DNA of 64,000 nt, from the NCBI RefSeq assembly GCF_050013435.1, contig NZ_JBEKFG010000005.1, forward strand, positions 12,609 to 76,608. Reading direction: 5' to 3'. Positions 2,881 through 51,919 of this stretch are shown here, in pieces. This stretch comes from Candidatus Binatus sp. (lineage in GTDB: Bacteria > Desulfobacterota > Binatia > Binatales > Binataceae). Numbering within the stretch: position 1 is the stretch's first letter; every line of letters begins with the position of its first letter. The notes below the pieces were generated by a model. It saw only the letters and a program-made list of their open reading frames with translations, did not search any database and had not been told where the DNA came from. The position numbers and the translations under genes are program-made.

Positions 2881-2952
2881 ATAATCCCCTATGGGAATGG
2901 TTAGGGGTTAGGCTAGCTCAGATTGGGTTCCAGAACGAATCACACTGGTGAA
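2881..2952 (-). repeat. direct-repeat copy 1: orphan duplicate of the carboxylesterase 3-prime end plus downstream sequence
   Basis: Aligns to 3670..3756 at about 90% outside the heptamer tract. On the minus strand it reads IHQCDSFWNPI-stop, versus FHQCDSFWNLF-stop at the real gene end. Confidence 0.85.
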
Positions 2953-3012
2953 TGTCTCAGCTATCTGAGAACGTCGCCAGCGAACCCGTGCAGTTAGATT
3001 TGCCACTTTCAA

Positions 3013-3588
3013 CTATGGGAGATCCTCATCGACAAGTCGGCGATCCAAAGAGACGTGGATAATCTGGCTCACGACAGCGTCAGCCGGAATGTCCTTCACT
3101 GTGTCATTGATTCTGGTTCTAGGAATTACCGCACAGAAATCAAAGTCCCATCCCGTAACCGGCGCTGACGCATCACCAAATCGGCATTTTGCAGTCCACC
3201 CGTAACGCGATATTTCGGCATCGGGTTGAGGAAACCAACGCCTATCATTCGCCTTACCGGCCAGAATCAGCACTTGAACTAGGGCTGCCGATGGGTAGGC
3301 GAATCCCTTGACGATTTTGAATAGAGGCACCTTGCCGCCAGCGGGCGACTCAATGACGATCAACGGCTGGAACTCAGCGCTTCGCTGCCTTACTCCAAAC
3401 AGCACGGCCACAATCACAACGGCCAGAACTCCGAGCAAAAAGCCGAGCGCAGTATTTTGGAACGGGATGGCCTGAATTAGCCTGATCGCAATCACTGCGA
3501 CACCTGCGCGGATCCAATCGAACAGGCTCCACTTGAAGTACCATCTGTTAAACTCCGGCTCGTTAAGCCACGCACCGATTTTCGACAT
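3013..3588 (-). CDS. hypothetical membrane protein (cassette gene)
   Basis: 191 aa with two N-terminal TM helices and a soluble C-terminal domain. No motif I recognise. It is the only gene between the two repeat copies. Confidence 0.55.
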   Translation of the reverse strand: MSKIGAWLNEPEFNRWYFKWSLFDWIRAGVAVIAIRLIQAIPFQNTALGFLLGVLAVVIVAVLFGVRQRSAEFQPLIVIESPAGGKVPLFKIVKGFAYPSAALVQVLILAGKANDRRWFPQPDAEISRYGWTAKCRFGDASAPVTGWDFDFCAVIPRTRINDTVKDIPADAVVSQIIHVSLDRRLVDEDLP

Positions 3589-3669
3589 GCCGACCCCCTG
3601 ACGGTGAGATTACCTCTCCCGCCGCCAAGGAATAGCCTAGCGGTAGAGGCGCTATCCGTCCACTTCCGG

Positions 3670-3756
3670 ATAATCCACTATGGGAAGGGGTTAGGGGTTA
3701 GGGGTTAGGGGTTAGGCTGGCTCAGAAAAGGTTCCAGAACGAATCACACTGGTGAA
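3670..3756 (-). repeat. direct-repeat copy 2: authentic carboxylesterase 3-prime end plus downstream sequence
   Basis: Same sequence as 2881..2952 but with two extra GGGGTTA units. Confidence 0.85.
3687..3716 (+). repeat. (GGGGTTA)x4 tandem heptamer, canonical G-quadruplex motif
   Basis: Sequence is ggggtta ggggtta ggggtta ggggtta gg, i.e. four G4 runs with TTA loops. The paralogous copy at about 2899..2914 has only about two units. Confidence 0.9.
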
Positions 3757-5236
3757 AGGCGTTAAAACTGGACTCGACCATCGGCGCTGGCGGGACCAAC
3801 GATTGGAACTCATCGGCTGACTTGCTGTACTTCGGCCACGTCGGCTCGTTAGCCGAGTTTGGGTTGCCAGTCTTCGCGAACTGCGTCCAGTAGCTGATCA
3901 TCGCGTCGGAGAGTGCCTGCTGGTCGGTCGTAAATGGGAAAACGTCCCCTGTTACAAGCATTAGGTATTGAATTTCCGCGCCGTGAAAGGCGCCCAGCGG
4001 AAAGCTTACCCCTGTTACGGTGCCCGGAGGCGCGTTCTCGTCATTGAACTCGTAGGCATAGGTCTTCACGAATTTCGACAATAGCAGATCCGCATTGCGC
4101 GCTGGACAGCTGAAGACTCCGTCGGTACCCGAGGCAGCCAATGCCAGATCGCCGCTAGGGTAACTGGCATAGGGATAGTATTCCAATACGTACGGTTCCA
4201 ATTCCGTTGTCCACAGCGCAGTGACTGCATCCGCGTATTCACCGAAGGTCAGGATAGGATTCCCCGCTAAGTCGTACTCACCAGCTACGAAGTACCTATA
4301 TTCATCATGGCTGGAGCATCCGACACTTATCGCGACGGAACTGCCCGACGGCGCGAAGCCATCGGTTGTCTCTGCAGTCTCTATTGGCACGATAGCAGGA
4401 AAGTAGTCCTGGAAGTCTGTATACGATCCGCTCTCGGCGATCGCGCCGCGGAACAGATGTTTCGCGGTCGGAGACGCAAGATTGCAATATACGCTCTGCC
4501 CTCCGGCGGACTCACCGAACATCGTCGCTTTCTTCGGATCGCCGCCAAAGGCCTTGATGTTCTCCTGAACCCACTTGAGCGCCAATTGCTGATCCATCAA
4601 CCCATAGTTGCCACGTTCATGGCCTTCGGAATCGAGCGCGGCCTGGGCAAGGAATCCCAGCACTCCCAGCCGGTAGTTGATCGTGACAACGATCACTCCT
4701 CCCTGGTTCACGAGTGGAGTAGGGTCGTAAAGGTCGCCGCCGCCGGCCGTAAGTCCGCCGCCATGAATCCAAACCATCACCGGCAGGCCGCTTGGCTTCT
4801 TGCTTGCGGCGGTCGTCTCGTCGCCGGCTTGTTCTACCGCGTTGCCAGGTTCGGAACCGGACGGCGTGTAAACATTCAGGTACAGACAATCCTCGCTGCC
4901 AGTCGGTCCGGGCTGCGTGCACTCATTGCCGAATTGAGTCGCCTCGAAAGTTCCTCCCGCAAACTCCCCGAAAGCCTCTGGCGGCAGCCAGCGCAGAGGC
5001 CCCACGGGAGGTGTGGCGTACGGGATGCCGAGAAATTCGTCGACGCCATTAACCGTTGTGCCGAGCACCACTCCGCTTTGAGCGATAGCAAACGGCTCTG
5101 GGTATGACGCCGTCTTGGCCGATGCGGTCACTACCGGGCCCAGCGTAAATGCGCAGAAAGCGGCCAATCCGAGGGCAAGCTTGGAAATAACGCCACAGCC
5201 CTCGAGCCGCTGGTTCGCCGTCTCGCTGTTCGTCAT
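3722..5236 (-). CDS. type-B carboxylesterase/lipase, secreted
   Basis: Motifs GIPYATPPVGPLRW, EDCLYLNVY and the nucleophile elbow FGESAGG. Signal peptide after MTNSETANQ. The tracked ORF 3722..6112 is an artefactual upstream extension running antisense to the GST gene. Confidence 0.9.
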   Translation of the reverse strand: MTNSETANQRLEGCGVISKLALGLAAFCAFTLGPVVTASAKTASYPEPFAIAQSGVVLGTTVNGVDEFLGIPYATPPVGPLRWLPPEAFGEFAGGTFEATQFGNECTQPGPTGSEDCLYLNVYTPSGSEPGNAVEQAGDETTAASKKPSGLPVMVWIHGGGLTAGGGDLYDPTPLVNQGGVIVVTINYRLGVLGFLAQAALDSEGHERGNYGLMDQQLALKWVQENIKAFGGDPKKATMFGESAGGQSVYCNLASPTAKHLFRGAIAESGSYTDFQDYFPAIVPIETAETTDGFAPSGSSVAISVGCSSHDEYRYFVAGEYDLAGNPILTFGEYADAVTALWTTELEPYVLEYYPYASYPSGDLALAASGTDGVFSCPARNADLLLSKFVKTYAYEFNDENAPPGTVTGVSFPLGAFHGAEIQYLMLVTGDVFPFTTDQQALSDAMISYWTQFAKTGNPNSANEPTWPKYSKSADEFQSLVPPAPMVESSFNAFHQCDSFWNLF

Positions 5237-6914: not shown

Positions 6915-7102
6915 CCGCAATCGTCAAGCGTCAGTTCGCTTCTTTGCCGGTGACTGGCTGGAGAACGGTGCCGCGAACCGGCATTATGTATGGGTTGCCG
7001 AGATCGGTTCCACGATCTGATTGGCGACAAGTTTGCAAACCTGATTGATCATCCAGGAGGCTGCTCCGAGATTCCTCGAGGACCCACGGGACCGATTCAA
7101 GA

Positions 7103-10909: not shown

Positions 10910-11210
10910 GACTATGACTCTCCGGCGCCATCCGCTATGAGGCGGCATTTATTTGCGCTGCTGGCGAATAAGAATACACATACAATTGGTTCACTACTCG
11001 TGCCACGGGAGATTGGTAACCTGCCGAACATTTTCATCAAAAATCGGGCGCGCACCGCGTTGCAGACCGTTTGCGTCAGCGTCGAGGCGCTGACGTGTAT
11101 CCGACCGCGCCAATTGACTGCCGCTGAGAAGCCAACTTATTTGGCAGGCGGATTGCAATAGTAAGAAAGTTCGAAAAGACGATCAGGTTGCATTGAAAGG
11201 GGCGATAAAA

Positions 11211-13712
11211 ATGCCAGCCGCGGCCGCCGACCCGCTCGGCGGCCTGAGTCACGACGAGGCGGCGCGGCGCCTGAAGCGGTACGGGCCTAACCGCCTGGTG
11301 CGCGCATCGCGCGGCGCCGCAATCCTGGCGTTTCTCAGAACCGCCGCGGACCCGATGGCATTAATGCTGGCCGCGGCCGGCGCGGTTTACTACGCGCTGG
11401 GCGAGCGGACCGACGCGTACGTCCTGTTCGCAGCGATCGTTCCGGTGCTTGCCGTCGATGTAATCCTCGAGGCGCGATCGCGCACCGCTCTCAAGAAGCT
11501 TGCGGGCGTCGTCGCGCCGCGGGCGCGAGTGGTTCGCAGCGGTGTCCAGACCGAGGCTGCGACCGCGGACCTTGTCCCCGGCGATCTGCTGGCGCTGAAA
11601 GAGGGCGACATCGTTCACGCCGATGCGGTTGTGCGTTCGAGTTCCAATCTCGCGCTCGACGAATCGCAGCTCACCGGCGAAGCGGAACCCGTTTCGAAGC
11701 GGCCGTGCGAAACACCCGGAGCCATGCCGGATGCCGCGGAGGACAGCCGCGTGTATGCGGGCTCGCGCGTGCTCGAGGGCCAGGGGTTTGCCGAGGTAAC
11801 GGCGACCGGGGAGCGCACCCGCTATGGCGACCTGGCGCGCCTGGTCGCGGAGGTCGGCCCGCGTCCTACCCCGCTTGAGCGCAAGACCGGGCGCATGGTG
11901 CGCTGGATGGTCGGCGTGGCGATTACCGTTTCGGCGCTGCTGTTTGTCGTGCGCATGCTCGGCGGCGCGCCGGCGGGCAAGGCGTTTCTGTATGCGGTCA
12001 GCCTCGCGATGTCCGCCGTTGGCGAAGAGTTCCTGCTGGTGCTGACGATGTTCCTGAGTATCGGAGCGTATCGCCTTAGCCAGCACGGAGTCCTGGTGCG
12101 CCGCCTGGCCAGCGTCGAGACGCTCGGCTCAACCACCGTCATCTGCCTCGACAAGACCGGCACTCTGACGGCCGGCGAGTTCGTGCTCGAGGAGCATCTG
12201 CCGCTGGGGCCGGAGATGCCGGAGGACGCGTTGCTCGAGGCGGCCGCGCTCGCCTGCGAGCCTCAAGCCGCCGACACGATGGAGAGAAAGATTCTCGCCC
12301 ATTGCACGGAGCACGGGATCAACGTCGATGCGCTTCACTCGCGATGGCATCTGGAGCACGACTACGCGTTCGACCCGGTCGGCAAACACATGTCGCACGT
12401 CTGGAGCAGCGGCGACGGCGCCGGGGGCGCACAGCGAATCGTGGCGAAGGGCGCGCTGGAAGGGATAATCGAGCATTGCGATCTGTCGCAGGCGGATTTC
12501 GCTCGCGCCGAGAGCGCCAATGCCGAGATGGCGGGGCGCGGAATGCGCGTGCTTGCCGTGGCCGGCCGCGATGCGCGGCCGGGCGGATTCAACGGCGTGC
12601 GCGGGTCGGACGAGCGCGGGCTTCGTCTGTTCGGGCTGCTCGGGTTTCGCGATCCGCTGAGAGCCGCGGTTCCCGACGCGGTCGCGCAATGCCAGCGCGC
12701 CGGGGTGGAACTCAAGCTGATTACCGGCGACCACGCGCTCACCGCGCACGCAATCGCCGACGCCGCCGGAATCGCGCACAGCGACGACGGCATCGTCACC
12801 GGCGCGCAACTCGACAGCGTTGACCAGCCGGCCTTCGAAGGGCTGGTTCGCCGCTGCAGCATCTTCGCGCGCATCCGCCCCGAACAAAAATATGCGATCG
12901 TCGAGGCGCTGAGGCGCGCGGGCGAAGTCGTCGCGATGACCGGCGACGGGATAAACGACGCGCCGGCGCTGCGCCGGGCGGACATTGGCGTGGCGATGGG
13001 CCGGCGCGGAACGGAGGTCGCACGCGCGGCTGCGGACATCGTGCTGCTCGAGGACGATTTCTCCGCGATGGTCGCAACGATTCGCGAAGGCCGGATTTTG
13101 CTCGACAACATTCAGCGCGCCTTCCTTTACCTGGTCGGCTTCAAGGTGATGCTGGTATCGCTCACGCTGTTGGCGCCGGTCTTCGGCCTGCCGCTGCTGC
13201 TATTGCCGGTGAATTTGGTGTGGCTCGAGATGATCGTACACCCGGTCTCCGCGCTCGCTTTCGAGGGCGAGCCCGCCGTCGATGACGTGATGCGGCGGCC
13301 GCCGCGTCCTCCCTCAGCGCCGATCGTCGAGCGACCCGCCGCTTACCGTGCGGCTTTATCCGGGGCGCTGCTGACGGTGATGGCGCTTGCGCTCTTCGCG
13401 CTTCGACTCCGCGACGGCGAGAACTACGCCCGCAGCGTCGCGATGGTCGTCGCCGTGGTGGGGAGCCTGTTTCTGGTCTGGGCGGAGTACGCAGGGACCC
13501 GTCGATGGTGGCGGGTTCGCGCGCCGGAGCAGCGGCGATTCTGGCTTGTGATCTTTGCCGTAGCCGCCAGTCTGCCGGCATTCATGCTGACGCCGCCGCT
13601 GGCTAAGCTGCTGATGATCCGCCCGATTGCTCCCGCCGATTGGGGGATCGCAATATTGGCGGCGGCGATCGCCGTCGGTTGGCGCGCGTTCGGCACCCGC
13701 AGCGTCAGATAG
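11211..13712 (+). CDS. cation-transporting P-type ATPase (P2/P3-like)
   Basis: Phosphorylation motif CLDKTGTLT, hinge MTGDGINDAPAL and a TGE-type actuator motif (LTGEAEP). About 10 TM helices. ATG at 11211 is preceded by aaagggg; a TTG at 11193 is also possible. Confidence 0.9.
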   Translation: MPAAAADPLGGLSHDEAARRLKRYGPNRLVRASRGAAILAFLRTAADPMALMLAAAGAVYYALGERTDAYVLFAAIVPVLAVDVILEARSRTALKKLAGVVAPRARVVRSGVQTEAATADLVPGDLLALKEGDIVHADAVVRSSSNLALDESQLTGEAEPVSKRPCETPGAMPDAAEDSRVYAGSRVLEGQGFAEVTATGERTRYGDLARLVAEVGPRPTPLERKTGRMVRWMVGVAITVSALLFVVRMLGGAPAGKAFLYAVSLAMSAVGEEFLLVLTMFLSIGAYRLSQHGVLVRRLASVETLGSTTVICLDKTGTLTAGEFVLEEHLPLGPEMPEDALLEAAALACEPQAADTMERKILAHCTEHGINVDALHSRWHLEHDYAFDPVGKHMSHVWSSGDGAGGAQRIVAKGALEGIIEHCDLSQADFARAESANAEMAGRGMRVLAVAGRDARPGGFNGVRGSDERGLRLFGLLGFRDPLRAAVPDAVAQCQRAGVELKLITGDHALTAHAIADAAGIAHSDDGIVTGAQLDSVDQPAFEGLVRRCSIFARIRPEQKYAIVEALRRAGEVVAMTGDGINDAPALRRADIGVAMGRRGTEVARAAADIVLLEDDFSAMVATIREGRILLDNIQRAFLYLVGFKVMLVSLTLLAPVFGLPLLLLPVNLVWLEMIVHPVSALAFEGEPAVDDVMRRPPRPPSAPIVERPAAYRAALSGALLTVMALALFALRLRDGENYARSVAMVVAVVGSLFLVWAEYAGTRRWWRVRAPEQRRFWLVIFAVAASLPAFMLTPPLAKLLMIRPIAPADWGIAILAAAIAVGWRAFGTRSVR
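13643..13708 (+). repeat. 66-bp direct repeat, copy 1 (last 22 codons of the ATPase)
   Basis: 64/66 identical to 16505..16570. Confidence 0.9.
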
Positions 13713-13902
13713 GTTTTGTCGATCACGTCTGTGACCGGGCATTGTCGCCATGCGCTAACCGAGACATCGCCGCATCATCCTTTCTAGCCGGTCGCATTCG
13801 ATCCTTTGCATTCAGGCGGAGTACAATTGCCCAATGCCATGCTCACTTGGGCCGCAACTGGCTGGCGATGCGCAACTCTGCCGAACCTGAAGAGCTTCTC
13901 GA

Positions 13903-15216
13903 ATGACGCGACGACCGCCGCGCGCCACAGTGTCCGAAGCGGACGATAGGCCAACTATCGTTACTCGCGACTCGGACCCGGACAGGCGGCCCTCCGCGCG
14001 GAGCTTGCGCGGACTCGACTGGCTCAACTTCCTGCTCGCCGACGTGCAAAGCGGTGTGGGGCCGTTCCTCGCGATCTACCTTGCCGGCTATGGCTGGAAC
14101 GAGCAGCGCGTGGGCCTTGCACTCACGATTGGAGGAATCGCCGGTATCGCATCGCAAACACCGGCCGGCGCTTTGGTGGACCGGCTCAAGTCCAAAAGAG
14201 CGCTGATTGCGGCGGGAGTGGCCGCCTTGGCTATCGGCGCTCTCTTCATTGCGTTCTTTCCGTCGTTCTGGCCGGTGGTGACAGCGCAAGTGCTTATCGG
14301 CGCAATGTCCAGTTTCTTCATGCCTGCCATCGCCGCAATCTCTCTTGGGATTGTGGGACATAGACTCTTCAATCTCCGCCAAGGACGAAACCAGGCATTC
14401 AATTCGGCCGGCAACGTGGTCGCCGCCCTAATGATGGGGCTGATCGGTTATTTCATTTCGAACCGCGGCGTCTTTTTCTTTGTCGCGGTTCTCGCAGTCC
14501 CGACGATCCTGTCGCTGTTGCTCATCCGCCCCGACGAGATCGACTACGAACTGGCCAGGGGAGCCAGGGACGGCGAGGATGATCGAAATCCGGCAAGTGT
14601 CCTGGAACTGATCGAGGATCACCCGCTGATGATCTTCCTGTGCTGCGCGGTCATGTTTCATTTCGCCAACGCAGCGATGCTTCCGCTGCTCGGCGAGATG
14701 CTGGCGAAAGGCAAGGGTCGCACTTCGATGATGTTCATGTCCGCCTGTGTCGTGACAACGCAGTTCACGATCACACTGCTCGCGGCACGGGCAGGCCGGA
14801 GTGCGGGCTCATGGGGCAGAAAGCCCCTGCTGCTCGTAGGATTCGGAGTGCTGCCGATCCGCGGCGTCCTTTACACCCTCACCCACAACCTCTACCTGCT
14901 GGTCGGCATCCAGGTGCTCGACGGCATCGGCGCCGGCATTTTCGGCGTCGTTTCCGTATTGGTGATCGCCGACCTGACGCGTGGCACCGGGCGGTTTAAT
15001 CTTACGCTCGGCGCGATCGCAACGGCCGTGGGAATCGGCGCGGCTCTAAGTCAAACGATCGCCGGATCTATTGTTCACCACTTCAGTGACCGAGCCGGGT
15101 TTCTGTTCCTGGCCTCCGTGGCGGCGGCGGCCTTTGCGATCCTGTGGCTCTTCATGCCCGAAACCCTTGACTGGAAAGCCGGCGCTCACGCGCCGACGTC
15201 GGTGGCGAAGCGTTGA
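13903..15216 (+). CDS. MFS transporter
   Basis: 437 aa, about 12 hydrophobic helices with a central loop. Charged N-terminal extension. Confidence 0.8.
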   Translation: MTRRPPRATVSEADDRPTIVTRDSDPDRRPSARSLRGLDWLNFLLADVQSGVGPFLAIYLAGYGWNEQRVGLALTIGGIAGIASQTPAGALVDRLKSKRALIAAGVAALAIGALFIAFFPSFWPVVTAQVLIGAMSSFFMPAIAAISLGIVGHRLFNLRQGRNQAFNSAGNVVAALMMGLIGYFISNRGVFFFVAVLAVPTILSLLLIRPDEIDYELARGARDGEDDRNPASVLELIEDHPLMIFLCCAVMFHFANAAMLPLLGEMLAKGKGRTSMMFMSACVVTTQFTITLLAARAGRSAGSWGRKPLLLVGFGVLPIRGVLYTLTHNLYLLVGIQVLDGIGAGIFGVVSVLVIADLTRGTGRFNLTLGAIATAVGIGAALSQTIAGSIVHHFSDRAGFLFLASVAAAAFAILWLFMPETLDWKAGAHAPTSVAKR

Positions 15217-16481
15217 CGATTGCCAATGACACTATCTGGGCAATCGCCGCGCTGAGCACCCTTGGTGTGATCGTCCGCCCTTGGAACCTGCCCGAGGCGA
15301 CCTGGGCTGTGACCGGCGCGGTCATGCTGATCGTGTTCGGTCTGCTGCCATGGAGCGACGCGCTGAAAGCGGTCGCCAAGGGGACCGATGTGTACCTGTT
15401 TCTGAGCGGCATGATGCTGCTGGCGGAGTTGGCGCGCAAAGAGGGTTTGTTTGACTTTCTGGCCGGGCGAGCCGCTCGCTTGGCGGGCGGCTCCGCGGCG
15501 AAGCTGTTCGCGCTGGTTTATGGCGTCGGCACAGTAGTTACAGTTTTTATGTCGAACGACGCTACTGCGGTCGTCCTCACGCCAGCCGTGTTCGCCGCGA
15601 CCAAGGCCGCCAAGGTGAAGGACCCGCTGCCCTACCTGTTGATCTGCGCGTTTATAGCAAACGCGGCAAGCTTCGTCCTGCCGATCTCAAATCCAGCCAA
15701 CCTGATCATCTTCCGCGACCACATGCCGCCGCTGCTGCAATGGCTCGGGCGATTCGCGTTGCCATCGATCCTGTCGATCGCGGTTACCTATGCTGTCCTG
15801 CGGTTCACGCAGAGCGATTCGCTGCGGCAGGAGGTAATGGCCGCTGAGGTCGATGTACCTGGCCTGTCCAGCGGCGGCCGCATGACCGCTTGTGGCATCG
15901 TGGGCACGGGAATCGTGCTGCTGCTTGTCTCCGGCTTCGGCGTTGACCTTGGACTGCCGACATTTGTGGCCGCAGTCGCGACTGCCGCCGTAGTGCTTTT
16001 TCTAAAGCGCCAGTCACCGTGGAGTGTGATGAAGGACGCTTCCTGGGAAATCTTGCCGCTGGTGGCCGGTCTGTTCGTGCTGGTAGAGGCGCTTGATCGC
16101 AGCGGCGTGCTCAAAGCGCTCATTCATATTCTGCAGATAGGAGCAGATCGCTCTGCGATGGTGACGACTTGGATAGCGGGCGTGACTCTGGCCCTGATTT
16201 GCAACCTGGTCAACAACCTGCCGGCCGGTCTGCTGGCAGGCTCGGTTGTGTCTGCTGCGCATGTACCGCGGCAGGTCGCCAGCGCAGTGCTCATCGGGGT
16301 GGACCTCGGACCGAATTTGTCAGTTACCGGATCGCTGGCAACCATCCTGTGGCTGTCCGCGCTGCGGCGGGAAAATCAGAATGTGAGCGCCTGGAGTTTT
16401 CTGAAACTCGGTGCGTTGGTGATGCCGCCGGCTTTGATTCTCGCGATTGCGGGACTGCTGGTCACCGGCTCCGTTCGCTAG
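15213..16481 (+). CDS. ArsB/NhaD-superfamily permease
   Basis: 422 aa polytopic protein resembling arsenical-pump/citrate-transporter family permeases. TTG start overlaps the MFS stop codon. Confidence 0.7.
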   Translation: MTIANDTIWAIAALSTLGVIVRPWNLPEATWAVTGAVMLIVFGLLPWSDALKAVAKGTDVYLFLSGMMLLAELARKEGLFDFLAGRAARLAGGSAAKLFALVYGVGTVVTVFMSNDATAVVLTPAVFAATKAAKVKDPLPYLLICAFIANAASFVLPISNPANLIIFRDHMPPLLQWLGRFALPSILSIAVTYAVLRFTQSDSLRQEVMAAEVDVPGLSSGGRMTACGIVGTGIVLLLVSGFGVDLGLPTFVAAVATAAVVLFLKRQSPWSVMKDASWEILPLVAGLFVLVEALDRSGVLKALIHILQIGADRSAMVTTWIAGVTLALICNLVNNLPAGLLAGSVVSAAHVPRQVASAVLIGVDLGPNLSVTGSLATILWLSALRRENQNVSAWSFLKLGALVMPPALILAIAGLLVTGSVR

Positions 16482-16504
16482 TCCGTCCAGCGCCGAAACC
16501 TTTC

Positions 16505-16570
16505 GGGGATCGCAATATTGGCGGCGGCGATCGCCGTCGGTTGGCGCGCGTTCGGCACGCGCGGCGTCAG
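16505..16570 (+). repeat. 66-bp direct repeat, copy 2 (orphan ATPase 3-prime end)
   Basis: Same frame reads GIAILAAAIAVGWRAFGTRGVS with no stop. Overlaps the stop codon of the convergent acyl-CoA dehydrogenase. Confidence 0.9.
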
Positions 16571-17799
16571 CCCTTCGGCAAGCCCAGCACGCGCTCACCG
16601 ATGATGTTGCGCTGGATTTCGCTGGTGCCGCCCGCGATCGTAAACTCCCGCGCGGCGAGTATCCGGCTGGCCCATTTGCCACCTTCGACGGCTCCACGCG
16701 ACCCGCTCTCCAGATTCGCGTAAGCACCGAGCATCTCGTCGGCGAACATCGCCATGCGCAGGCTGAGTTCCGTCGCGCACAGTTTCCCGATCGAACTCTC
16801 CGCGCCGGGCACTCGCCCCTTGAGCTGTGCGGTCATCGCGCGATAACGGCCGAGCCGGATACATCGCGCCTCCGCGGCAAATTGCGCGAGCTTCTGGCGG
16901 ATGTACGGGTTGCTCCACGCGGGCACGGCGTCAAAAGCCACGGTCTTCGCCAGCGCGATCAATTCGCCCATCGTGCGTTCCACCGGATGACGCACTCCGC
17001 CCGACGCCCGCTGAAACATCAGCGTTGCGATCGACACTTGCCACCCTTCGTTCAGCTTGCCGACCATGTTCTGCTTCGGCACTCGCACGCCGTCGTAAAA
17101 GACCTCGTTGAATCCCATCTCGCCGGTGATCTGCATGAGCGGCCGGATCGTGATTCCCGGACTGCGCAGATCAACCAGCAGATACGAAATTCCTCGATGC
17201 TTGGGCGCGGCCGGATCGGTGCGGACCAGCAGTACCTGGTAAGCCGCGCGATGCGCGTTGCTGGTCCATACCTTCTCGCCGGTGACCACGAACGAGTCGC
17301 CGTCGAGCACCGCGCGGGTCTGAAGTCCCGCCAGATCGGAACCTGCGTTAGGTTCCGAGTATCCCTGGCACCAGATTTCTTCGCCCGTGAGCATCGGCGC
17401 CAGGTAGCGTTTTTTTTGCTCCTCGGTGCCGAGCAGCATTATCGTCGGGCCGATCCGATCGACCGCGAAATTGTTCGCGCCGTACAGCGGCAGCCCGAGC
17501 CGCAAAGCCTCGTCCTGGTAAATCGATTGCTCGACCACCCCGGCTTCGCTCCCGCCCCAATTCTTCGGCCAGTGAAGCGCGAGATACCCGGCGTCGTGCA
17601 ACCGCCGATGGTACGTGAGGATCTTCTGCCAGAGTTCGTCGTCGCGGCTGTAGAGCAGGCTCTCGATTGTTACGCTTGGCGACTCGACCAGATCGCCAAA
17701 TAGTTCCGACGCCGTCGCCTCCATCCATGCGCGCAGCCGGCTGCGGAATTGCTCCTGCTCTGGTGTGTAGTCGAAGTCCACCGAACTAGACGTTTGCAA
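16567..17799 (-). CDS. acyl-CoA dehydrogenase
   Basis: 410 aa. C-terminal FTIAGGTSEIQRNIIGERVLGLPK signature plus a YSEPNAGSDLAG mid-domain motif. Confidence 0.9.
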   Translation of the reverse strand: MQTSSSVDFDYTPEQEQFRSRLRAWMEATASELFGDLVESPSVTIESLLYSRDDELWQKILTYHRRLHDAGYLALHWPKNWGGSEAGVVEQSIYQDEALRLGLPLYGANNFAVDRIGPTIMLLGTEEQKKRYLAPMLTGEEIWCQGYSEPNAGSDLAGLQTRAVLDGDSFVVTGEKVWTSNAHRAAYQVLLVRTDPAAPKHRGISYLLVDLRSPGITIRPLMQITGEMGFNEVFYDGVRVPKQNMVGKLNEGWQVSIATLMFQRASGGVRHPVERTMGELIALAKTVAFDAVPAWSNPYIRQKLAQFAAEARCIRLGRYRAMTAQLKGRVPGAESSIGKLCATELSLRMAMFADEMLGAYANLESGSRGAVEGGKWASRILAAREFTIAGGTSEIQRNIIGERVLGLPKG

Positions 17800-17825
17800 G
17801 CCGCCTGCCGGCAGCTGGTCCTGCG

Positions 17826-18335
17826 CTACGCGAACAACATTCTTCTGAGCGCCGGGAACAGGCGCATTTCCTCGCTATCGATCAAATCGTCGAGCTTCAC
17901 CGCCAGCACACATAGAGCTTTGCCGGCCACGGCCACAACTTTATCCGCATCTTTCTCGAACGACACTCCGTTAAGCTTGGCTATCAGCGAGCGCATTTCG
18001 AGGTGGCTCTGCTTGATTCGCTCGATCACCTCGGGAGCAAGGCCGCCGGCAAGTTCCGCCCACGGCAGCACTGTTTCATCTTCGCTCAACAGATGCTGAT
18101 TGAGTCGCGGCTTGAGAGTTTCCCAACAGCGCTGCGCCTGCGCACGCATCTCGCGATCCGACGGCTTGAAGCCCAAAATGGCGCCTGCCACTGCCGCGTC
18201 CAGCAGCCGCATCCCCAGCCGGTATTGTTCACGGTCCAGTTCTTCCGTGAGTTTTCTGATCTGGCCCGTGCCGGGGGCCTTTTCGGCCCCGATCGCTAAT
18301 GGCTTCTTGGCGGTAGTCATATTCATCGTCCTCAC
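17826..18335 (-). CDS. hemerythrin-like (HHE cation-binding) domain protein, tentative
   Basis: 169 aa all-helical protein with spaced His/Glu residues (NQHLLSEDE, KQSHLEM, EEMRLFP). Weak recognition only. Confidence 0.45.
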   Translation of the reverse strand: MRTMNMTTAKKPLAIGAEKAPGTGQIRKLTEELDREQYRLGMRLLDAAVAGAILGFKPSDREMRAQAQRCWETLKPRLNQHLLSEDETVLPWAELAGGLAPEVIERIKQSHLEMRSLIAKLNGVSFEKDADKVVAVAGKALCVLAVKLDDLIDSEEMRLFPALRRMLFA

Positions 18336-18698
18336 GATTGCAAACTGACTCTAGCAGGATGTTGAAAATTTGGGATCAGTCGTCGTTTTCGATTTCAAGC
18401 TTTTCAACACCCACCCCTGCCTGCCGTTGTATCCGTTGAACACACAGCCTGTTTCCCTTGGCGACACTACCGGATCAAATCGACGGATTTCACGATTTCG
18501 ATATCGAGACGAAACAGCGTCGACATTTCGTGCTTTCGACTGAAATAAGCAAAGATCTAGTTCCGCATAACCAAGCGCATAAGGCCGTCTCATCATTGAT
18601 CGCAGCGATACTTGCGGCCATCCGATCATTTATGCCAGAAGTTCCCGGAGATATTGGCCGATGGGCCGTGATGTTCAGCAGGGGACGGCTGATCTTCT

Positions 18699-18714
18699 GG
18701 GCACAAATGTTGCT
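18699..18714 (+). promoter_or_regulatory. sigma-54 (-24/-12) promoter candidate upstream of the porin-cytochrome cluster
   Basis: gGGCACaaatgTTGCt matches TGGCAC-N5-TTGCW in both conserved blocks with correct spacing. The GC dinucleotide lies 46 nt before the ATG at 18759. Confidence 0.65.
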
Positions 18715-18758
18715 CCGCGACGAATGCGCCGACTACTTGGGCGCCGATTGGAGGAATT

Positions 18759-20318
18759 ATGCCAGCCAGACGAATTTTCTCGATATTTCTCCTCGCATTT
18801 GGCCTCGTGGCGTTATCACGGGTGGGTCTGGCGCGCGCGGCCGACAGCGACGGCAGCGCCGCCGATCTCAAGGAAATCAAAAGCGAGATGCGTCAGTTGC
18901 GCGAGGAGCGCAAGCGTGACCGCGAAGTAATTCACTCGCTCGAGATCAAGGTTCAGCAACTCGAGACGAAGGATTCAAAGGTCGCGGCCACCACTGAGCA
19001 GTTGCACGCCACGGATCAGAAGCTCAAGGAGACGACCCTCGAGCTTCAGCAGACTAACGCCCAGGTGCAGACTTTGCAGACCAAGGTCGATGCGCCGATC
19101 GCGGCGTCGGAGTTTGGCGATGCGGTTAGTCGATACCTCGGAACCCACTCGTTCACCGTGGCCGGTGCCGCCGGCGGCAGCTTCATCTATGACCAGCAAA
19201 GCGGCGGCCTCGACGGCGTTTCTCATGTATCGCAGAATTCGTTCTTTTTCGATTGGGAGCCGATGTTTCTGTATCGCCCGACTGACTGGATCATGTTCGA
19301 GGGCGTGATCAGCACCGCGTTTGGAAGTACCGGGACGGGAGCCGATCTGTCGACCGCTGATTTTCAGATTTTTCTTAACGACTATATGACGGTCGTGGCC
19401 GGGCTTTTCGATCAGCCGTTCGGTGACTGGTACGAGAACCAGAGCCCGATGTGGGTGAACCGGTTTGTCACGGCGCCGCTGCCGTTTGGAGTTGAGCCCG
19501 TGGTTCCGCCGGGGGAGATTGGAGTCCAGCTTCGCGGCGGCATGCAATTCGGCGCGCTCGGTCAGGATTTCGACTACACCGTCTGGGGCGGAAACGGCCC
19601 CAATTTCAGCTCCAACGTCCTCGGCGCCGCGCTCTCGAGTCCAACCGCCGTCGCCAACAGCCAGACCAACGGCAAATCGATCGGCGCGCGTTTTCGCATC
19701 TATCCGCTCCCGGTAGATTCTCAAATGGGCCGCCTCGAGCTCGGAGCCTCCACCTACAACGGCAAGTGGGCAAATGGAAATTGGTACAATTCATGGGGCG
19801 TCGATTTCAACTACTTCATCGGCAACTTGCAGGCCCGCGGAGAATGGATGGAATCGTACCGTCAGATGCCCGACGGTATGGGCTCTGACAATCGCCAGGG
19901 ATGGTACGTGCAAGCCGGTTACGTCCTGAACGATCTCAACGTCCCGTGCTTCCCCGACAAGCTCAACGGCTATCTCCATCGATTTGAGCCGCTGGTGCGC
20001 TATTCGGGAGTCAACCAGCGCGCCGTTGCAAGCGACGACATCGAGGCCGCTACCGGCGTCGGCCAGGGCGGCTTCCAGACCGGTCTGGTTCCCGATTTCG
20101 GCATCAACGGGTCGCCGGCCACCTACGCGCCACACGCTCGCGAAGTCGCGTTGGCTCTCGACTATTGGATCGCACCATCGATCGTTTGGCAGAACGAATT
20201 CGACCTCGAGTTGCCGCAAAATGGAGGAGCATTCGTCTCACCCAGCGGCGCGGTGACACCCGCGGGTCCAATTCCCAACGATCGCGCCTTCCTCAGCCAA
20301 TTCACGATCGGATTCTGA
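18759..20318 (+). CDS. outer-membrane beta-barrel porin with N-terminal coiled coil (porin O/P-like)
   Basis: Signal peptide, about 90-aa heptad coiled coil, aromatic-rich alternating beta-strand pattern, C-terminal ...FTIGF. Confidence 0.65.
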   Translation: MPARRIFSIFLLAFGLVALSRVGLARAADSDGSAADLKEIKSEMRQLREERKRDREVIHSLEIKVQQLETKDSKVAATTEQLHATDQKLKETTLELQQTNAQVQTLQTKVDAPIAASEFGDAVSRYLGTHSFTVAGAAGGSFIYDQQSGGLDGVSHVSQNSFFFDWEPMFLYRPTDWIMFEGVISTAFGSTGTGADLSTADFQIFLNDYMTVVAGLFDQPFGDWYENQSPMWVNRFVTAPLPFGVEPVVPPGEIGVQLRGGMQFGALGQDFDYTVWGGNGPNFSSNVLGAALSSPTAVANSQTNGKSIGARFRIYPLPVDSQMGRLELGASTYNGKWANGNWYNSWGVDFNYFIGNLQARGEWMESYRQMPDGMGSDNRQGWYVQAGYVLNDLNVPCFPDKLNGYLHRFEPLVRYSGVNQRAVASDDIEAATGVGQGGFQTGLVPDFGINGSPATYAPHAREVALALDYWIAPSIVWQNEFDLELPQNGGAFVSPSGAVTPAGPIPNDRAFLSQFTIGF

Positions 20319-25700: not shown

Positions 25701-26126
25701 ATGAAGCTGAAATTGTTGGCGTCAATCTTTGCGCTAGGCGCCGCGCTGTCCGTCGCGCAGCCCGCGCTGTCTGCGGGCAATGACGTGAGCGACGGGCACC
25801 GTTATTTCCTTCGCTACTGTGCGTCATGCCATGGTCTGGACGGTCTCGGAGACGGTCCGGTGGCGAAGAGCCTGTCCACGCCGCCGACAAGTCTGCGCAA
25901 GCTCGGCGACAAATATGGCGTGCCGCTGCCGGCGCATCGCATAGCCGAACTGATAGACGGTCGAGATACACCCAGGGCGCATGGGACTCACGAGATGCCG
26001 GTATGGGGAGAGCGCCTTTACGAGCTTGGCCAGGGTGAAAGGGGCGAATACGGGATCGGTGAAGTGATCGGCAAAATTATTGCCTACCTCAACATGATTC
26101 AGGATCGCCGAACTGCGATGCGATAA
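25701..26126 (+). CDS. monoheme cytochrome c
   Basis: Signal peptide, CASCH motif, HEMPVW distal Met region. Confidence 0.85.
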   Translation: MKLKLLASIFALGAALSVAQPALSAGNDVSDGHRYFLRYCASCHGLDGLGDGPVAKSLSTPPTSLRKLGDKYGVPLPAHRIAELIDGRDTPRAHGTHEMPVWGERLYELGQGERGEYGIGEVIGKIIAYLNMIQDRRTAMR

Positions 26127-26132
26127 CGCTGC
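26087..26132 (+). repeat. 46-bp direct repeat, copy 1 (last 12 codons plus stop of cytochrome c)
   Basis: 42/46 identical to 27321..27366. Confidence 0.85.
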
Positions 26133-26339
26133 AATGATGCGGGCGCGGCCCGCCAGCCCCGGTGCTGTCTTAATTCGGGACTGAGTGGTTGAATTTGAAT
26201 CCGCGAGTGTCTTAATTCGGCGCAATGCAACTAGGGTAAATTACCCTATTTAATTTTGCTTGAGCGGTGCAGGTTTCGAACCTTCTGATCTTGGCATCGC
26301 TTGCAATTTGACGCCGTCCAACTCTCCGACTGCCATCAT

Positions 26340-26750
26340 TTAGGGTGTCGGCAGGAACGCCGCCGGCGAGACGTGAAACCGCGCGGCAAGTTTTTTGATC
26401 TGATGCACATTGAGTTCGCGCTTTCCGCGCAGCACTTCCGATACTACGCCTTGGCTGCCGATCTCGGGCAGATCAGACTGCGTCAGGTCGTGCTCCTCCA
26501 TCAGATACTTGAGCACTTCGAGCCCGGAGGCGTCGGCTAAAGCATGATGCTCCACGTCGTATGCCTCGATCAGCACGCTCAGCGTTTCGATGAAGCGGTA
26601 ACGTGGGTCCCGCGGGTTGTCGCCAATCTCGTCAACCAGTTTGTTGAGCTGATTGACGGCCGTGTCGTATTCGCGGGCGCTGTGAATCGCGAGGAGCGGA
26701 GCGAATGCGGCCGGGTTCTTTAGGGTTCGAGTGGTAGTCCGACTTTTCAT
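26340..26750 (-). CDS. higA: HigA-type HTH (XRE) antitoxin
   Basis: 136 aa. C-terminal HTH LTQSDLPEIGSQGVVSEVLRGKRELNVHQIKKLAARFHVSPAAF. 4-nt overlap with higB. Confidence 0.85.
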   Translation of the reverse strand: MKSRTTTRTLKNPAAFAPLLAIHSAREYDTAVNQLNKLVDEIGDNPRDPRYRFIETLSVLIEAYDVEHHALADASGLEVLKYLMEEHDLTQSDLPEIGSQGVVSEVLRGKRELNVHQIKKLAARFHVSPAAFLPTP

Positions 26751-27046
26751 TTTTTCCAGCCACCTCTGTCGTATTCTGCATGGGTCAAGATGTAGCGGAT
26801 GAACAGCATTTGCCTGTTGAAGTGAATCGCTGCGATCAGCCTGTACTTGTTACCAGCAATATTGAAAACGTAGAAATCGCCCTTGCCGGTCGGCACGTAG
26901 TCCACCGATCCGAAGGTTCGCTTCAGCTCGGCCAGATTTGAATACGTTCCACTTTTTACCAGCTTGCACCATACTCGCAGCGGCGCGTCAGCATCGGGGT
27001 ATTGTTGCGCGAAGTCCCTGAGCGCCTTCTCCGAGACAACCCGCAT
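26747..27046 (-). CDS. higB: HigB-type mRNA interferase toxin
   Basis: 99 aa, toxin-first arrangement. Contains FNIAGNKYRLIAAIHFNRQMLFIRYILTHAEYD. Confidence 0.85.
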   Translation of the reverse strand: MRVVSEKALRDFAQQYPDADAPLRVWCKLVKSGTYSNLAELKRTFGSVDYVPTGKGDFYVFNIAGNKYRLIAAIHFNRQMLFIRYILTHAEYDRGGWKK

Positions 27047-27052
27047 GTCGAG

Positions 27053-27081
27053 AATATATCTCAGGATGAGATAGATGTCAA
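27053..27081 (-). promoter_or_regulatory. sigma-70 promoter candidate for higBA (near-leaderless)
   Basis: Minus strand reads TTGACA-17 nt-TATATT, and the -10 box ends 6 nt before the higB ATG. Confidence 0.6.
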
Positions 27082-27320
27082 CTCAAATTGCGATGAATTT
27101 TATTACTTCTTCGCCTTGCGCTTTTTGGCTCTCACCGCGGCGTGGCGGATATTCATGGACAGTGAGTTAGCAGGCGGTCGCGGGACCGGCAAACGGCGGT
27201 GGCGCAGAGGCGGCCGGGCGCGAGCGGAAATGCGGCCGCATCGCGAGATCGTTCCGACGAGTGTTGAGCGCAGCGGGAAAGAACTCGTGCGCCTGACCCG
27301 GGATTTTCGGGTACTCATTT

Positions 27321-27366
27321 CCTCAACATGATTCAGGATCGCCGAATGGCGGCGCGATAACGCTGC
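27321..27366 (+). repeat. 46-bp direct repeat, copy 2 (orphan cytochrome c 3-prime end)
   Basis: Retains the frame and stop (LNMIQDRRMAAR-stop versus LNMIQDRRTAMR-stop). Confidence 0.85.
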
Positions 27367-48652: not shown

Positions 48653-50326
48653 ATGAAATCGGCGCGTGGGGCGCGATTCACGCGCGGCAGTGGACCCGGA
48701 GAATGCAAACGACCGCGTCTGACGGCAAAAATCGCTCAAAATTCTCTGTTCGCGATTTTGGCATGTCCATCGGCGAACCGGCCGACATTTTGCGGGGAAG
48801 CGTCCTCGGGAAGAACGCCTGACGCAAGCAACTACGCCCGCGTGAGTCTATCGGATTTCCAGAGCTTGCTGCTGCGCGCTCCAGAGCGGGGGCAGTTCGA
48901 TTCTTTGGGTCATCGCGATGGCGCTGAGGTCCGCAGGCTGGCGGCCTTCGACGATCGCCTCGAGGATCCTGGGCGCCAGAAACGCCAGCCGCATCACGCG
49001 GCGCAGGGGAGCGCGACACTCTCGTATGCGTACGACAGCGCGGGCCGGCTGTCGAGCATGACGCTGCCCAATGGCGTTGTGGTGGCGTATAGTTACGATG
49101 CCGGCTCGCGCATAGCGGCGATCGCATACAGCAACGGGAGCGGATCGTTGGGGAATTTGAGCTACAGCTACGATGCGGACGGGCGGACGGTTGGCAAGGG
49201 CGGGAGCCTCGCGTCGATCGTGATGCCGCAGCCAGTCAGCGGCAATACATTCAACGCCGCCAATGAGATGCAGAACTTCGGCGGACAGCCGCTAGCCTAC
49301 GACACGGACGGGAACCTGCTCGGCGACGGGACCAACAGCTATACTTGGGATGCCCGAAATCAGCTGGCGTCGCTCGCTGGCCCCACGTCGGCCAGCTTCG
49401 CTTATGACGCATTCGGTCGGCGGGTGGGCCAGACGATCACTGGCGCATTGACCGGGTATCTGTACGATCTCGCCAATGCAGGCATGCCGCTGCAGGAATT
49501 TTCCAGCACCGGCGCTCCGCTCTTGTCGGGGCTTGGTGCAAGCCGTGTTGATCTAAGCGGCACGATGACTTTTCTTTCCGACGCGCAGAACAACACGATC
49601 GCGCTAACCGACAACACCGGCGCGATCCAGACTCAGTACAGCTGTGGCCCCTTCGGCGCGGTGTCGATAACGGGCGCCGCCAGCACAAATCCGTACCAAT
49701 TCGGAGATATGCAAAACGATGGCACGGGACTGTATTATGCATCGGGAGGGTATTACAGCGCCACCTTTGGACTTGGCATCGGCGGCTCTGCACTCGCCAC
49801 AGGCGCGAGTCAAAACGCATCCAGCTCCGGGAACGGTTCGTGTGACAAATGTCGGGCTCAGTTAAAATACCACCCTGTAGACTATCCCCTCATTAGCGAT
49901 ATCGCCAACCACGCGTTTTGGGATGTACACATGGCAGATGATGGGAGTCCTGGGACCATTTATAGTGGTCAATCTTCAAAATATATGGATGGCACTTACC
50001 ACCTTAATGACTGGGGTTACCTGGCACGGTACGAATGGGCGGATAACAGCCCGGCGCCACCCCATGTAAGTGACAATAAGGACGACGACACCTCGTACGA
50101 TTCCTTTTTTAGCTCAGACCTCTGTCAAGCCTGCCACTTGCTGGATTATGCTGCCTCGTTTTGGCCGCAGGGGCAGATTACCTATTGGCCAGCATGGGGA
50201 CCAAACAGCAATACTTTGGCAAACCATCTTGGCCTATGCGGGGGATTTCCGGACGGACCTCCTCCCCTCACCACAGGTAAAGGCGGGTGGGATAATCCGG
50301 TGGCTCAACAGGTGCCCTGCTTATAG
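48653..50326 (+). CDS. 5-prime-truncated (orphan) RHS/YD-repeat protein fragment with unrecognised C-terminal tip
   Basis: YD repeats begin abruptly at about 48996 (QGSATLSYAYDSAGRL..., YSYDADGRT, YTWDARNQL, FAYDAFGRR). Core-end-like GLYYASGGYYSATFG, then about 170 aa of lower-GC novel sequence. The first roughly 115 codons are not RHS-like. Confidence 0.7.
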   Translation: MKSARGARFTRGSGPGECKRPRLTAKIAQNSLFAILACPSANRPTFCGEASSGRTPDASNYARVSLSDFQSLLLRAPERGQFDSLGHRDGAEVRRLAAFDDRLEDPGRQKRQPHHAAQGSATLSYAYDSAGRLSSMTLPNGVVVAYSYDAGSRIAAIAYSNGSGSLGNLSYSYDADGRTVGKGGSLASIVMPQPVSGNTFNAANEMQNFGGQPLAYDTDGNLLGDGTNSYTWDARNQLASLAGPTSASFAYDAFGRRVGQTITGALTGYLYDLANAGMPLQEFSSTGAPLLSGLGASRVDLSGTMTFLSDAQNNTIALTDNTGAIQTQYSCGPFGAVSITGAASTNPYQFGDMQNDGTGLYYASGGYYSATFGLGIGGSALATGASQNASSSGNGSCDKCRAQLKYHPVDYPLISDIANHAFWDVHMADDGSPGTIYSGQSSKYMDGTYHLNDWGYLARYEWADNSPAPPHVSDNKDDDTSYDSFFSSDLCQACHLLDYAASFWPQGQITYWPAWGPNSNTLANHLGLCGGFPDGPPPLTTGKGGWDNPVAQQVPCL

Positions 50327-51271: not shown

Positions 51272-51919
51272 TTGTCACCGGACGACCTGTACTTACTAGA
51301 AATTAAATCCGGCCTAAAAGGGAAGAAGTTTGCGGGGTTCGGCTATAACGGAAGCGGCTACGAAAGCACGATCAGCTACCAGTATGACAATAGTGACAGG
51401 CTGACCCAGGTAGTTGATTCGATAGCCGGGACGATTACGCGGACTTACGATAACTTCGACAACTTGATTGACGAACAGACGCCGCAGGGGGAAGTCACTT
51501 ACAGCTATGACGCCGACCATCGGCTCCAAACCCGTACGGTGGTGGGTGAGACTCCTGTCAACTATTCGTGGGACGCCGCCGGCAATCCGCTGTGCGCGGT
51601 GCAGGGGAGCGCGACACTCTCGTATGCGTACGACAGCGCGGGCCGGCTGTCGAGCATGACACTGCCCAATGGTGTTGTTGAGACATTTGGTTACGACAGC
51701 GACTCGCGCATCGCGGCGATCACATACAGTAATGGGACCGGGCCGTTGGGCAACCTGACCTACAGCTACGATGCGGATGGGCGGACGGTTGGCAGGGCAG
51801 GAAGAATTTGCGTGGGACGGGCCAGCAACCGACCAAGCGCTGAAGTTGATCGATCATGCGTTCGAAGCGACGTATCGGCAAGAAGCAACGAAAGTAATCT
51901 GAAAAAAGAACGAGGCTAG
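51272..51919 (+). pseudogene. internal RHS/YD-repeat fragment
   Basis: YD repeats (YQYDNSDRL, YSYDADHRL, YSWDAAGNP, LSYAYDSAGRL, YSYDADGRT) with no N-terminus. Loses RHS character after about 51800. Confidence 0.65.

Follow-up and report, generated by a model that had tools for sequence, protein, structure and literature searches.

Insertion of DNA with a long duplication of the target leaves an uncommon scar that has been described for units of restriction-modification (R-M) genes (Nobusato et al., 2000, Gene 259:99; Furuta, Abe & Kobayashi, 2010, PMC2853133). The 2010 survey recognised such events by repeats that match one empty-site sequence, a duplication of more than 30 bp, an insert of less than 20 kb without a mobility gene and a repeat that is not multi-copy, and favoured a double-strand break made by the cargo as the cause (PMC2853133). 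Such duplication has mostly been linked to DNA-cutting or addiction modules, which has suggested that the cargo is responsible. Direct repeats of a gene 3' end also bracket foreign DNA in the genomic islands and integrative elements found at 3' ends, usually of tRNA genes, and there too the target keeps a working 3' end. In template switching of the MMBIR/FoSTeS type, and in homology-facilitated illegitimate recombination, insertions arise with little or no junction homology, and a template switch whose return lands upstream leaves the insert between duplicated stretches of variable length.

Here we describe a window (the whole stretch of DNA that was analysed, 64,000 nucleotides) from a Candidatus Binatus metagenome-assembled genome (G000; 150 contigs, 3.57 Mb, 94%-complete). 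It contains a further case of long-target-duplication insertion, in which the cargo is non-selfish and the landing site recurrent. Set against the events in PMC2853133, the cassette has an empty site, a duplication longer than 30 bp, a size below 20 kb (2862 nt), no mobility gene and a repeat that is not multi-copy; R-M cargo, which is a criterion of that survey and not of the mechanism, is absent, the cargo being two transporters. As in the R-M insertions, the repeat spans the stop region of a gene, so that the target genes stay usable in both, and repeat length varies between events; at this very junction, the cargo in a related genome (G019) is itself an R-M unit. The window differs in that its cargo consists of two ordinary transporters and not of a DNA-cutting or addiction module, its target is a 38-nt tail-to-tail gene overlap, and at least four independent events have occurred at the same junction. 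Since plain transporters form the cargo, a cargo-made double-strand break cannot be the cause here, and the presence of the same scar around them makes the host's own replication or repair a more likely cause.

The integrative elements of 3' ends (attL/attR) restore the gene that they enter with a copy of their own, whereas the ATPase end in the window is not a copy and 12 codons were lost. Unlike these elements, the cassette has no integrase, its boundaries vary and its copy at another locus has no repeats. As for MMBIR/FoSTeS-type events, neither a donor flank nor an anchor tract can be seen beside the junctions.

Structure of the locus

The features of the locus, in positions of the window, are as follows.

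11193..13712, + strand: P-type (type II/III-like) cation ATPase, 839 aa (Pfam E1-E2_ATPase, Cation_ATPase_C, Hydrolase; NCBIfam TIGR01494 above cut-off)
13643..13708, + strand: repeat copy 1 (functional), encoding the end of the last transmembrane helix, GIAILAAAIAVGWRAFGTRSV
13709..13902, + strand: left cassette end, a non-coding spacer with the present ATPase stop TAG (13710-13712), recognised by homology to the cassette elsewhere
13903..15216, + strand: MFS transporter gene, 437 aa, cargo gene 1 (Pfam MFS_1, 8.6e-39)
15213..16481, + strand: ion-transporter-superfamily permease of CitMHS/ArsB type, 422 aa, cargo gene 2 (Pfam CitMHS 4e-42, ArsB 8e-32)
16482..16504, + strand: right cassette end; 16482-~16489 homologous to other cassette copies, 16490-16504 = GCGCCGAAACCTTTC
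16505..16570, + strand: repeat copy 2 (orphan ATPase tail), non-coding here, its final 4 nt including the ACAD stop
16571..16604, + strand: leftover ancestral ATPase 3' end, with the rest of the 12-codon tail and TGA 16602-16604, antisense within the ACAD 3' end
16567..17799, - strand: acyl-CoA dehydrogenase (ACAD), 410 aa, intact (Pfam Acyl-CoA_dh_N/M/1)

An earlier, sequence-only reading had proposed that a 66-bp direct repeat of the ATPase 3' end brackets two transporter genes and nothing else, and both parts of this description held. Sequence reading and a repeat search showed 64 of 66 bases to be identical between 13643-13708 and 16505-16570, and the pair could be widened to 13640-13708 and 16502-16570 with 66 of 69 positions matching. 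The start-to-start distance of 2862 nt is a multiple of 3. A search of the whole 3.57-Mb assembly found exactly two copies of the 66-nt repeat, the sole further match being 31 nt at 87%; because only these two copies exist in the assembly, a chance origin of the pair is excluded. A role of the repeat as an intrinsic terminator for ACAD was rejected, since no terminator-like site was found within it and it gave no folding signal (z -1.07, -0.25, +0.94).

Open reading frames and Pfam searches placed only the MFS gene and the CitMHS/ArsB-type permease gene between the copies, the permease start overlapping the MFS stop by 4 nt. The MFS gene reached no equivalog in NCBIfam. The permease did not reach the cut-offs for an ArsB arsenite efflux pump (NF011980, 170 bits against 457; TIGR00935, 133 against 415), and its scores support assignment to the superfamily only (CitMHS/ArsB/DASS fold). 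From about 13708, the left end of the cassette is homologous to its left end at other loci in three relatives (G042, G041 and G045), while the 15 nt at the right end (16490-16504, GCGCCGAAACCTTTC) are of uncertain origin and identical in another genome, G007. Pfam searches of every ORF between 9.8 and 20.3 kb found no integrase, recombinase or transposase gene in or beside the insert, and the repeat search found no terminal or bracketing inverted repeats around it; of the three marks of a transposon or insertion sequence (transposase, terminal inverted repeats and a short target duplication of fixed length), none was present. Compositional foreignness of the cassette was rejected, its GC content being 0.59-0.63 where the genome averages 0.62. 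An ancestral ATPase-MFS-permease operon in other genera was likewise rejected as the donor: permease homologues (58-80% aa identity, three other genomes of the family) had no MFS or ATPase neighbour.

The functional ATPase ends in ...GTRSVR, encoded up to the AGA TAG at 13707-13712, with R and TAG in place of the last 12 ancestral codons; its orthologues in empty-site relatives have 851 aa compared to 839 aa in the window. The TAG at 13710-13712 lies in DNA homologous to the left end of the cassette at other loci, and therefore the insert gave the stop, as the sequence-only reading had suspected, and removed 12 ATPase codons. That reading had also supposed an ancestral tail-to-tail overlap of the ATPase and ACAD genes, and in empty-site relatives the two genes do overlap by 38 nt (in G042, L065:6413 is the end of the ATPase ORF, with the start of the ACAD ORF at 6376). 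It erred, however, in letting the orphan ATPase frame run into ACAD without a stop. The frame of the orphan copy reads ...GTRGVSPSASPARAHR and then a stop, running on for 12 more codons to the ancestral TGA at 16602-16604, 36 nt into ACAD; the frame of 16571..16604 is the one used by the intact ATPase of empty-site genomes. The final bases of the orphan copy contain the ACAD stop codon (16567-16569, TCA on the + strand), and the ACAD protein is 98.8% identical in amino acids to that of G042.

Empty sites, other cargo and other cassette loci

Six congeneric genomes (G002, G013, G041, G050, G056 and the closest, G042) have an empty site, where ATPase and ACAD lie directly tail to tail with one repeat copy and the transporters are absent. 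A predicted empty-site query aligned over its full length (1-426) in G042, G002, G041, G013 and G056, and was split in G007. Since the left flank and copy 1, joined to the DNA after copy 2, give the empty site of the relatives, the MFS and CitMHS/ArsB-like cassette is an insertion. No relative carried the transporters without repeats at the orthologous locus, and on this point, which the sequence-only reading had set as a test of itself, the outcome was in its favour.

The order ATPase-copy-MFS-permease-copy-ACAD was also found in the independent assembly G007 (L025). There, bases 13701-13870 at the left junction are deleted (170 nt, between GCGCA microhomologies), and G000 has its right junction in common with G007, down to the 15 nt whose origin is uncertain, indicating that the occupied allele has one origin. 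A recent transfer between G000 and G007 was rejected, as their cassettes share only 94% identity and similarity between their flanks is not raised.

Other cargo occupies the same junction in other species. An R-M cassette (m5C methylase, an unknown ORF and Vsr) in G019 has its own duplication of about 78 nt, a 1.9-kb insert in G014 one of about 45 nt, and a 0.39-kb insert in G057 one of about 24 nt. The candidate nuclease ORF of the R-M unit had no Pfam hit, and its relatives are only 'hypothetical'. Duplication lengths at this one junction are thus 24, 45, 66-69 and 78 nt, and their positions differ too; these cargos entered independently. The left edges of the orphan copies in the G000/G007 and G019 events are at most 7 nt apart, at ATTGGGGGATCGC, and two other events start exactly at the ACAD stop. 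These shared break positions (<=7 nt; ACAD stop) are more regular than random illegitimate joining predicts. A connection of the palindromes GCGATCGC and CGATCG, which lie at the edge of the duplication, with the specificity of the G019 R-M unit was rejected, and GATC and GCGATCGC are unremarkable there because they occur genome-wide at 8.3 and 0.28 per kb, respectively. At four other sites in the genome, the duplicated sequences have nothing in common. The reading of the junction as a landing site rests on at least four unrelated cargos with duplications of 24-78 nt, and on two pairs of events that share a break within 0-7 nt.

The transporter cassette itself is found, 93-94% identical, at two further loci in relatives, and is present once per genome at one of the three alternative loci. 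At locus 2, it occurs in G042 and G056, at a site that is cassette-free in G000 (C2:64951-65046), where it replaced about 95 nt of the target and left no duplication. The duplication thus belongs to the event and not to the cassette. The third context is in G041 and G045. At all three loci, cassette homology starts from one and the same (G)ATA, a hint of a defined unit, and no significant motif was common to the flanks of the three loci. A remnant of the ATPase tail in the cassette at other loci, which would have served as a homology anchor or pointed to the direction of movement, was rejected: the best match (14 of 15 nt, in G042) was equalled in 7 of 300 shuffles, and matches in the remaining cassette copies were not significant.

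Origin of the insertion

We consider it likely that the cassette was joined into the ATPase/ACAD overlap by an illegitimate event, as an insertion with long target duplication. In the ancestral state, the two genes converged with a tail-to-tail overlap of 38 nt. We infer the molecular course of the insertion as follows. A 2.8-kb segment holding only the MFS and CitMHS/ArsB-type genes would then have joined into the junction in a manner neither site-specific nor dependent on a recombinase, its left end after ATPase codon 838 and its right end 66-69 nt further upstream in the target, leaving this stretch on both sides. As the sequences show, the ATPase has kept its last membrane helix and lost its 12 C-terminal codons, with a stop taken from the insert; ACAD was left whole, and the old ATPase end is preserved in the orphan copy and the next 34 nt. 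The case thereby shows an insertion resolving a tail-to-tail overlap, with one gene re-terminated and the old end kept as a fossil.

The duplication may have come from replicative template switching, with copying out to the donor and back upstream, or from fill-in of offset breaks followed by joining. Microhomologies at the junctions are at most 1-3 nt and ambiguous. Ku-dependent end joining was rejected, no Ku (PF02735) having been found in the 94%-complete genome. The 66-nt repeats may have stayed similar since then through gene conversion: 2 nt differ between the copies of one genome but about 7 nt between those of G000 and of G007, so that gene conversion or re-formation is needed, which is an added assumption. 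The repeats would also permit precise loss, or exchange of occupied and empty alleles by homologous recombination, which would explain the empty sister species of each occupied genome.

It is a real possibility, though somewhat short of an even chance, that the occupied allele (copy 1-cassette-copy 2) came to G000 ready-made and non-vertically from a relative, the scar having been made once in some lineage. The route could have been recombination between homologous flanks, or an excised circle with one repeat that integrated in the Campbell manner, and this account competes only on how G000 acquired the allele, not on the first origin of the scar. Flank trees pair G000 with G042 and G007 with G013 at 100% support, although the site is empty in G042 and G013. 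Compared with all other copies, the cassette has a dS of 0.12-0.19, which is above the flank dS to G042 (about 0.10) and below that to G007 (0.19-0.29), and the locus-2 allele is likewise common to the non-sisters G042 and G056. However, the G000 flanks are G042-like (94-99%) as far as both junctions and contain no donor-type tract, and both repeat copies bear variants of the resident lineage, which would not result from Campbell crossover with a copy of foreign origin. The same pattern is explained by three precise losses via the 66-nt repeats.

Movement of the cassette as a non-autonomous site-specific element, driven in trans by a recombinase at an att-like core in the ATPase tail with the repeats as attL and attR, is improbable and already largely refuted. 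Such an element would accord with the start of orphan copies at most 7 nt apart at ATTGGGGGATCGC for two unrelated cargos (the G000 transporters and the G019 R-M unit), and with the same (G)ATA start at three loci, but no recombinase gene lies in or next to the insert and the repeat boundaries are not constant, with duplications of 24, 45, 66-69 and 78 nt at one junction. Moreover, the locus-2 cassette has substituted its target without duplication, the flanks of the three loci share no significant motif, and the duplications at four other genome sites share nothing, GATC being simply common. That the structure is an assembly artefact, a false join or a loop through the 66-nt repeat, is hardly credible even for a 150-contig metagenome-assembled genome. 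Between the two copies there are 2 mismatches, none of the four ORFs is interrupted, the assembly has the cassette only once, and the gene and repeat order is the same in G007. In addition, the soil metagenome contig Ga0181521_10020177 (L083) covers 14431-20031 of the window at 96% identity, spanning the cassette-orphan-ACAD junction. The suspicion of an assembly duplication, raised in the sequence-only reading, was thus answered by repeats that recur in one independent assembly and an orphan copy that recurs in a metagenome contig.

For insertion with long target duplication in Candidatus Binatus at large, we tentatively suggest that it may be a general, host-driven way of gaining ordinary genes at gene ends, that the ATPase/ACAD overlap may be a recurrent landing site with preferred breaks, and that the repeats could make cassettes reversible and exchangeable as interspecies alleles. 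The genus is a source of many occupied and empty alleles for study at the population level, and the genome of the window itself holds three further insertion cases with empty sites in relatives.

The repeat-bracketed transporter pair

Sequence reading and a repeat search both found that positions 13643-13708 (copy 1) and 16505-16570 (copy 2, the orphan copy) are identical at 64/66 nucleotides, or 66/69 when extended by three bases, with an in-phase spacing of 2862 nt. No further copy exists in the whole assembly (G000), a 150-contig, 3.57-Mb MAG of Candidatus Binatus, class Binatia, an uncultured soil lineage. The sequence-only reading held that the repeat brackets a two-transporter segment; alignment confirmed this, the only genes between the copies being those for an MFS protein and a permease. 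No terminator or fold signal was found in the repeat. The region is arranged as follows.

Gene arrangement around the two repeat copies
11193-13712: P-type ATPase, 839 aa; copy 1 is its end
194 nt: spacer between copy 1 and the MFS gene
13903-15216: MFS gene, between the copies
15213-16481: ion-transporter-superfamily permease gene, CitMHS/ArsB type, between the copies
23 nt: non-coding DNA between the permease gene and copy 2
16567-17799, minus strand: acyl-CoA dehydrogenase (ACAD), convergent; its stop codon abuts copy 2

Copy 1 codes for the terminal part of the ATPase's last membrane helix, followed by AGA TAG. The ATPase frame of the orphan copy had been described as running without a stop into the ACAD gene. 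This was inexact, as the frame continues for 12 codons and ends with TGA at 16602-16604; with this one correction, the observation is confirmed and its first interpretation supported.

Empty and occupied alleles in related genomes

The ATPase and the junction DNA served as queries against the 47 genomes of the genus, and the matching loci were retrieved. Six genomes (G002, G013, G041, G042, G056 and G050) had an empty site, with no transporters and a single copy of the repeat, and shared with the window the gene order PNPOx-like gene, ATPase, ACAD, hemerythrin and porin-like gene. In the closest relative, G042 (amino acid identity to G000 of 97.5% for the ATPase and 98.8% for ACAD), the 851-aa ATPase ORF ends at position 6413 of the locus (L065) and the ACAD ORF starts at 6376, giving a tail-to-tail overlap of 38 nt; the sequence-only reading had held that the ancestral genes probably overlapped in this way. 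A query joining the left flank, copy 1 and the DNA following copy 2 aligned end to end in five of the six genomes. This match and the empty relatives show that the transporters were inserted into the ancestral overlap, and the comparison establishes the boundaries of the insertion to within a few bases, along with its consequences for both genes. The present ATPase TAG derives from the inserted DNA, as the sequence-only reading had held. The old ATPase end survives as a fossil, consisting of the orphan copy and the next 34 nt.

The cassette occupies the same place in G007, where both repeat copies are present and the right junction is identical to that of G000, including 15 nt (GCGCCGAAACCTTTC) of uncertain origin. 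At the left junction of G007, the equivalent of 13701-13870 (170 nt) is absent between two GCGCA microhomologies (L025, G007:C29, 3930-3975), which we read as a later deletion. With this segment missing, the ATPase frame (846 aa) extends until it overlaps the start of the MFS gene in an ATGA, which probably provides translational coupling. The C-terminus of the G007 ATPase (…NSGKPEELLE) is of a third type. A soil metagenome contig (L083) matched window positions 14431-20031 at 96%, including the cassette-orphan-ACAD junction. Since G007 and L083 are independent assemblies with the same structure, an assembly artefact is very unlikely.

The right junction common to G000 and G007 indicates that the scar was made once. 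Trees of both flanks paired G000 with G042 and G007 with G013, with full support, and these sisters of the occupied genomes are both empty. Cassette copies are approximately equidistant from each other (identity 93-94%, dS 0.12-0.19); the flank dS is ∼0.10 from G000 to G042 and 0.19-0.29 to others, and the G000 flanks stay G042-like as far as both junctions. Formation of the scar was followed either by several precise losses via the repeats or by interspecies exchange of occupied and empty alleles through homologous recombination. Within each of G000 and G007, the two repeat copies differ by 2 nt, and between the genomes by ∼7 nt, with lineage-specific variants present in both copies; gene conversion would keep the copies alike under losses and allele exchange alike.

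Seven genomes of the genus contain the permease gene, each in a single copy. At a second locus, in G042 and G056, the cassette (93-94% identical) replaces the target DNA, with no duplication around it; G000 (C2:64951-65046), G007 and G013 carry instead ∼95 nt including a multi-copy REP-like element. This intergenic element lies at many other places in the genome, some cores reaching ∼75 copies. A third context is seen in G041 and G045. Homology among cassette copies starts at a common (G)ATA at ∼13708 and ends at ∼16489 or possibly 16504. The cassette contains neither an integrase or transposase nor terminal inverted repeats, and its GC content resembles that of the genome. It is a wanderer without a mobility gene.

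Recurrent insertion at the junction and possible mechanisms

Unrelated DNA lies at the ATPase/ACAD junction in other species (G019, G014 and G057), each time with its own duplication. The 2.75-kb unit of G019 (L031, G019:C260, 166-3121), resembling a restriction-modification (R-M) system, encodes an m5C methylase, a 298-aa ORF with only hypothetical relatives, and a Vsr endonuclease. Its repeat copies (∼78 nt, ∼8 mismatches) begin no more than 7 nt from the orphan edge in the window, and since its copy 1 extends 7 nt beyond that of the window, the event is independent. The sequences show that the other events at the junction were independent, as they show the single origin of the allele and the later deletion in G007. 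Of the G019 ACAD at the junction, only the last ∼65 nt remain, the rest being deleted.

The inserts of G014 (1.9 kb, duplication ∼45 nt) and G057 (0.39 kb, duplication ∼24 nt) have right copies beginning exactly at the ACAD stop codon, a pile-up that may reflect selection to keep ACAD intact. Beside the G014 insert, an NN run and a short stretch of locally duplicated ACAD 3' end (L034, G014:C119, ∼3950-3995) are probably a scaffolding scar of that assembly. In G017 and G001, a P450 gene replaces ACAD, and a 38-nt ACAD remnant is kept as the ATPase tail. Break positions are common to independent insertions (window 13640-13645 / 16502-16507 and the equivalents in G019, G014 and G057): the ACAD stop in G014 and G057, and the orphan edge, ≤7 nt apart in G000/G007 and G019, with the shared edge at ATTGGGGGATCGC. 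The junction has the appearance of a recurrent landing site.

For Furuta et al. (PMC2853133), an insertion with long target duplication measures <20 kb, lacks any other mobile element and has flanking repeats of >30 bp, both of which align to the empty site. They noted that the repeats often cover a start or stop codon, sparing the target gene, and proposed that some R-M property, such as DNA breakage, drives insertion. All the structural features are present in the window insertion, but its cargo consists of transporters, which argues that the scar is produced by the host's replication or repair rather than by the cargo. The insertion adds a clear and well-documented case to a known insertion mode, unusual in its non-selfish cargo and recurrent site.

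Two routes fit the duplication. It could have arisen by template switching during replication, with a return switch 66-69 nt upstream, or two offset breaks could have been filled in and then joined. Microhomology at the insertion junctions is at most 1-3 nt. Ku was not found in the G000 genome, which speaks against classical end joining.

Similar scars elsewhere in the genome

We scanned the G000 genome for isolated low-copy direct repeats and compared the joined empty-site queries with relatives. Three more scars had empty sites in relatives.

Further scars in G000
Window 26087-27366 (C5:38695-39974): higBA (higB-higA; Pfam HigB_toxin, HTH_3), between 46-nt copies (42/46) of the end of a cytochrome c gene
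C130:3015-3643 (copies 3015-3102, 3556-3643): single CopG-family antitoxin gene, 88-nt duplication (97%) of a gene 3' end
C8:5054-7036 (copies 5054-5145, 6945-7036): amidohydrolase gene, 587 aa, between 92-nt copies (96%) of the end of a thiolase-like gene with its stop codon

For higBA, the predicted empty site gave a full-length alignment in G013 and G002; the site is occupied in G042 and G007, and holds a larger insert in G056 and a different insert in G041. The CopG site is empty in G042, G056, G041, G007 and G013, and the amidohydrolase site in G042, G013 and G007; both are occupied, with the duplication, in G002. No motif was common to the duplicated sequences of the G000 cases.

Two other repeats were observed in the window. 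A ∼54-nt direct repeat at 2881-3756 (C5:15507-16364), with copies 804 nt apart, surrounds one small gene at an esterase gene end; only the repeat and right flank aligned in relatives, and no clean empty site was found. An 84-nt direct repeat (96%) lies at 48997-49080 and 51595-51678 (C5:61605-61688, spacing 2598), and another short segment falls on its diagonal.
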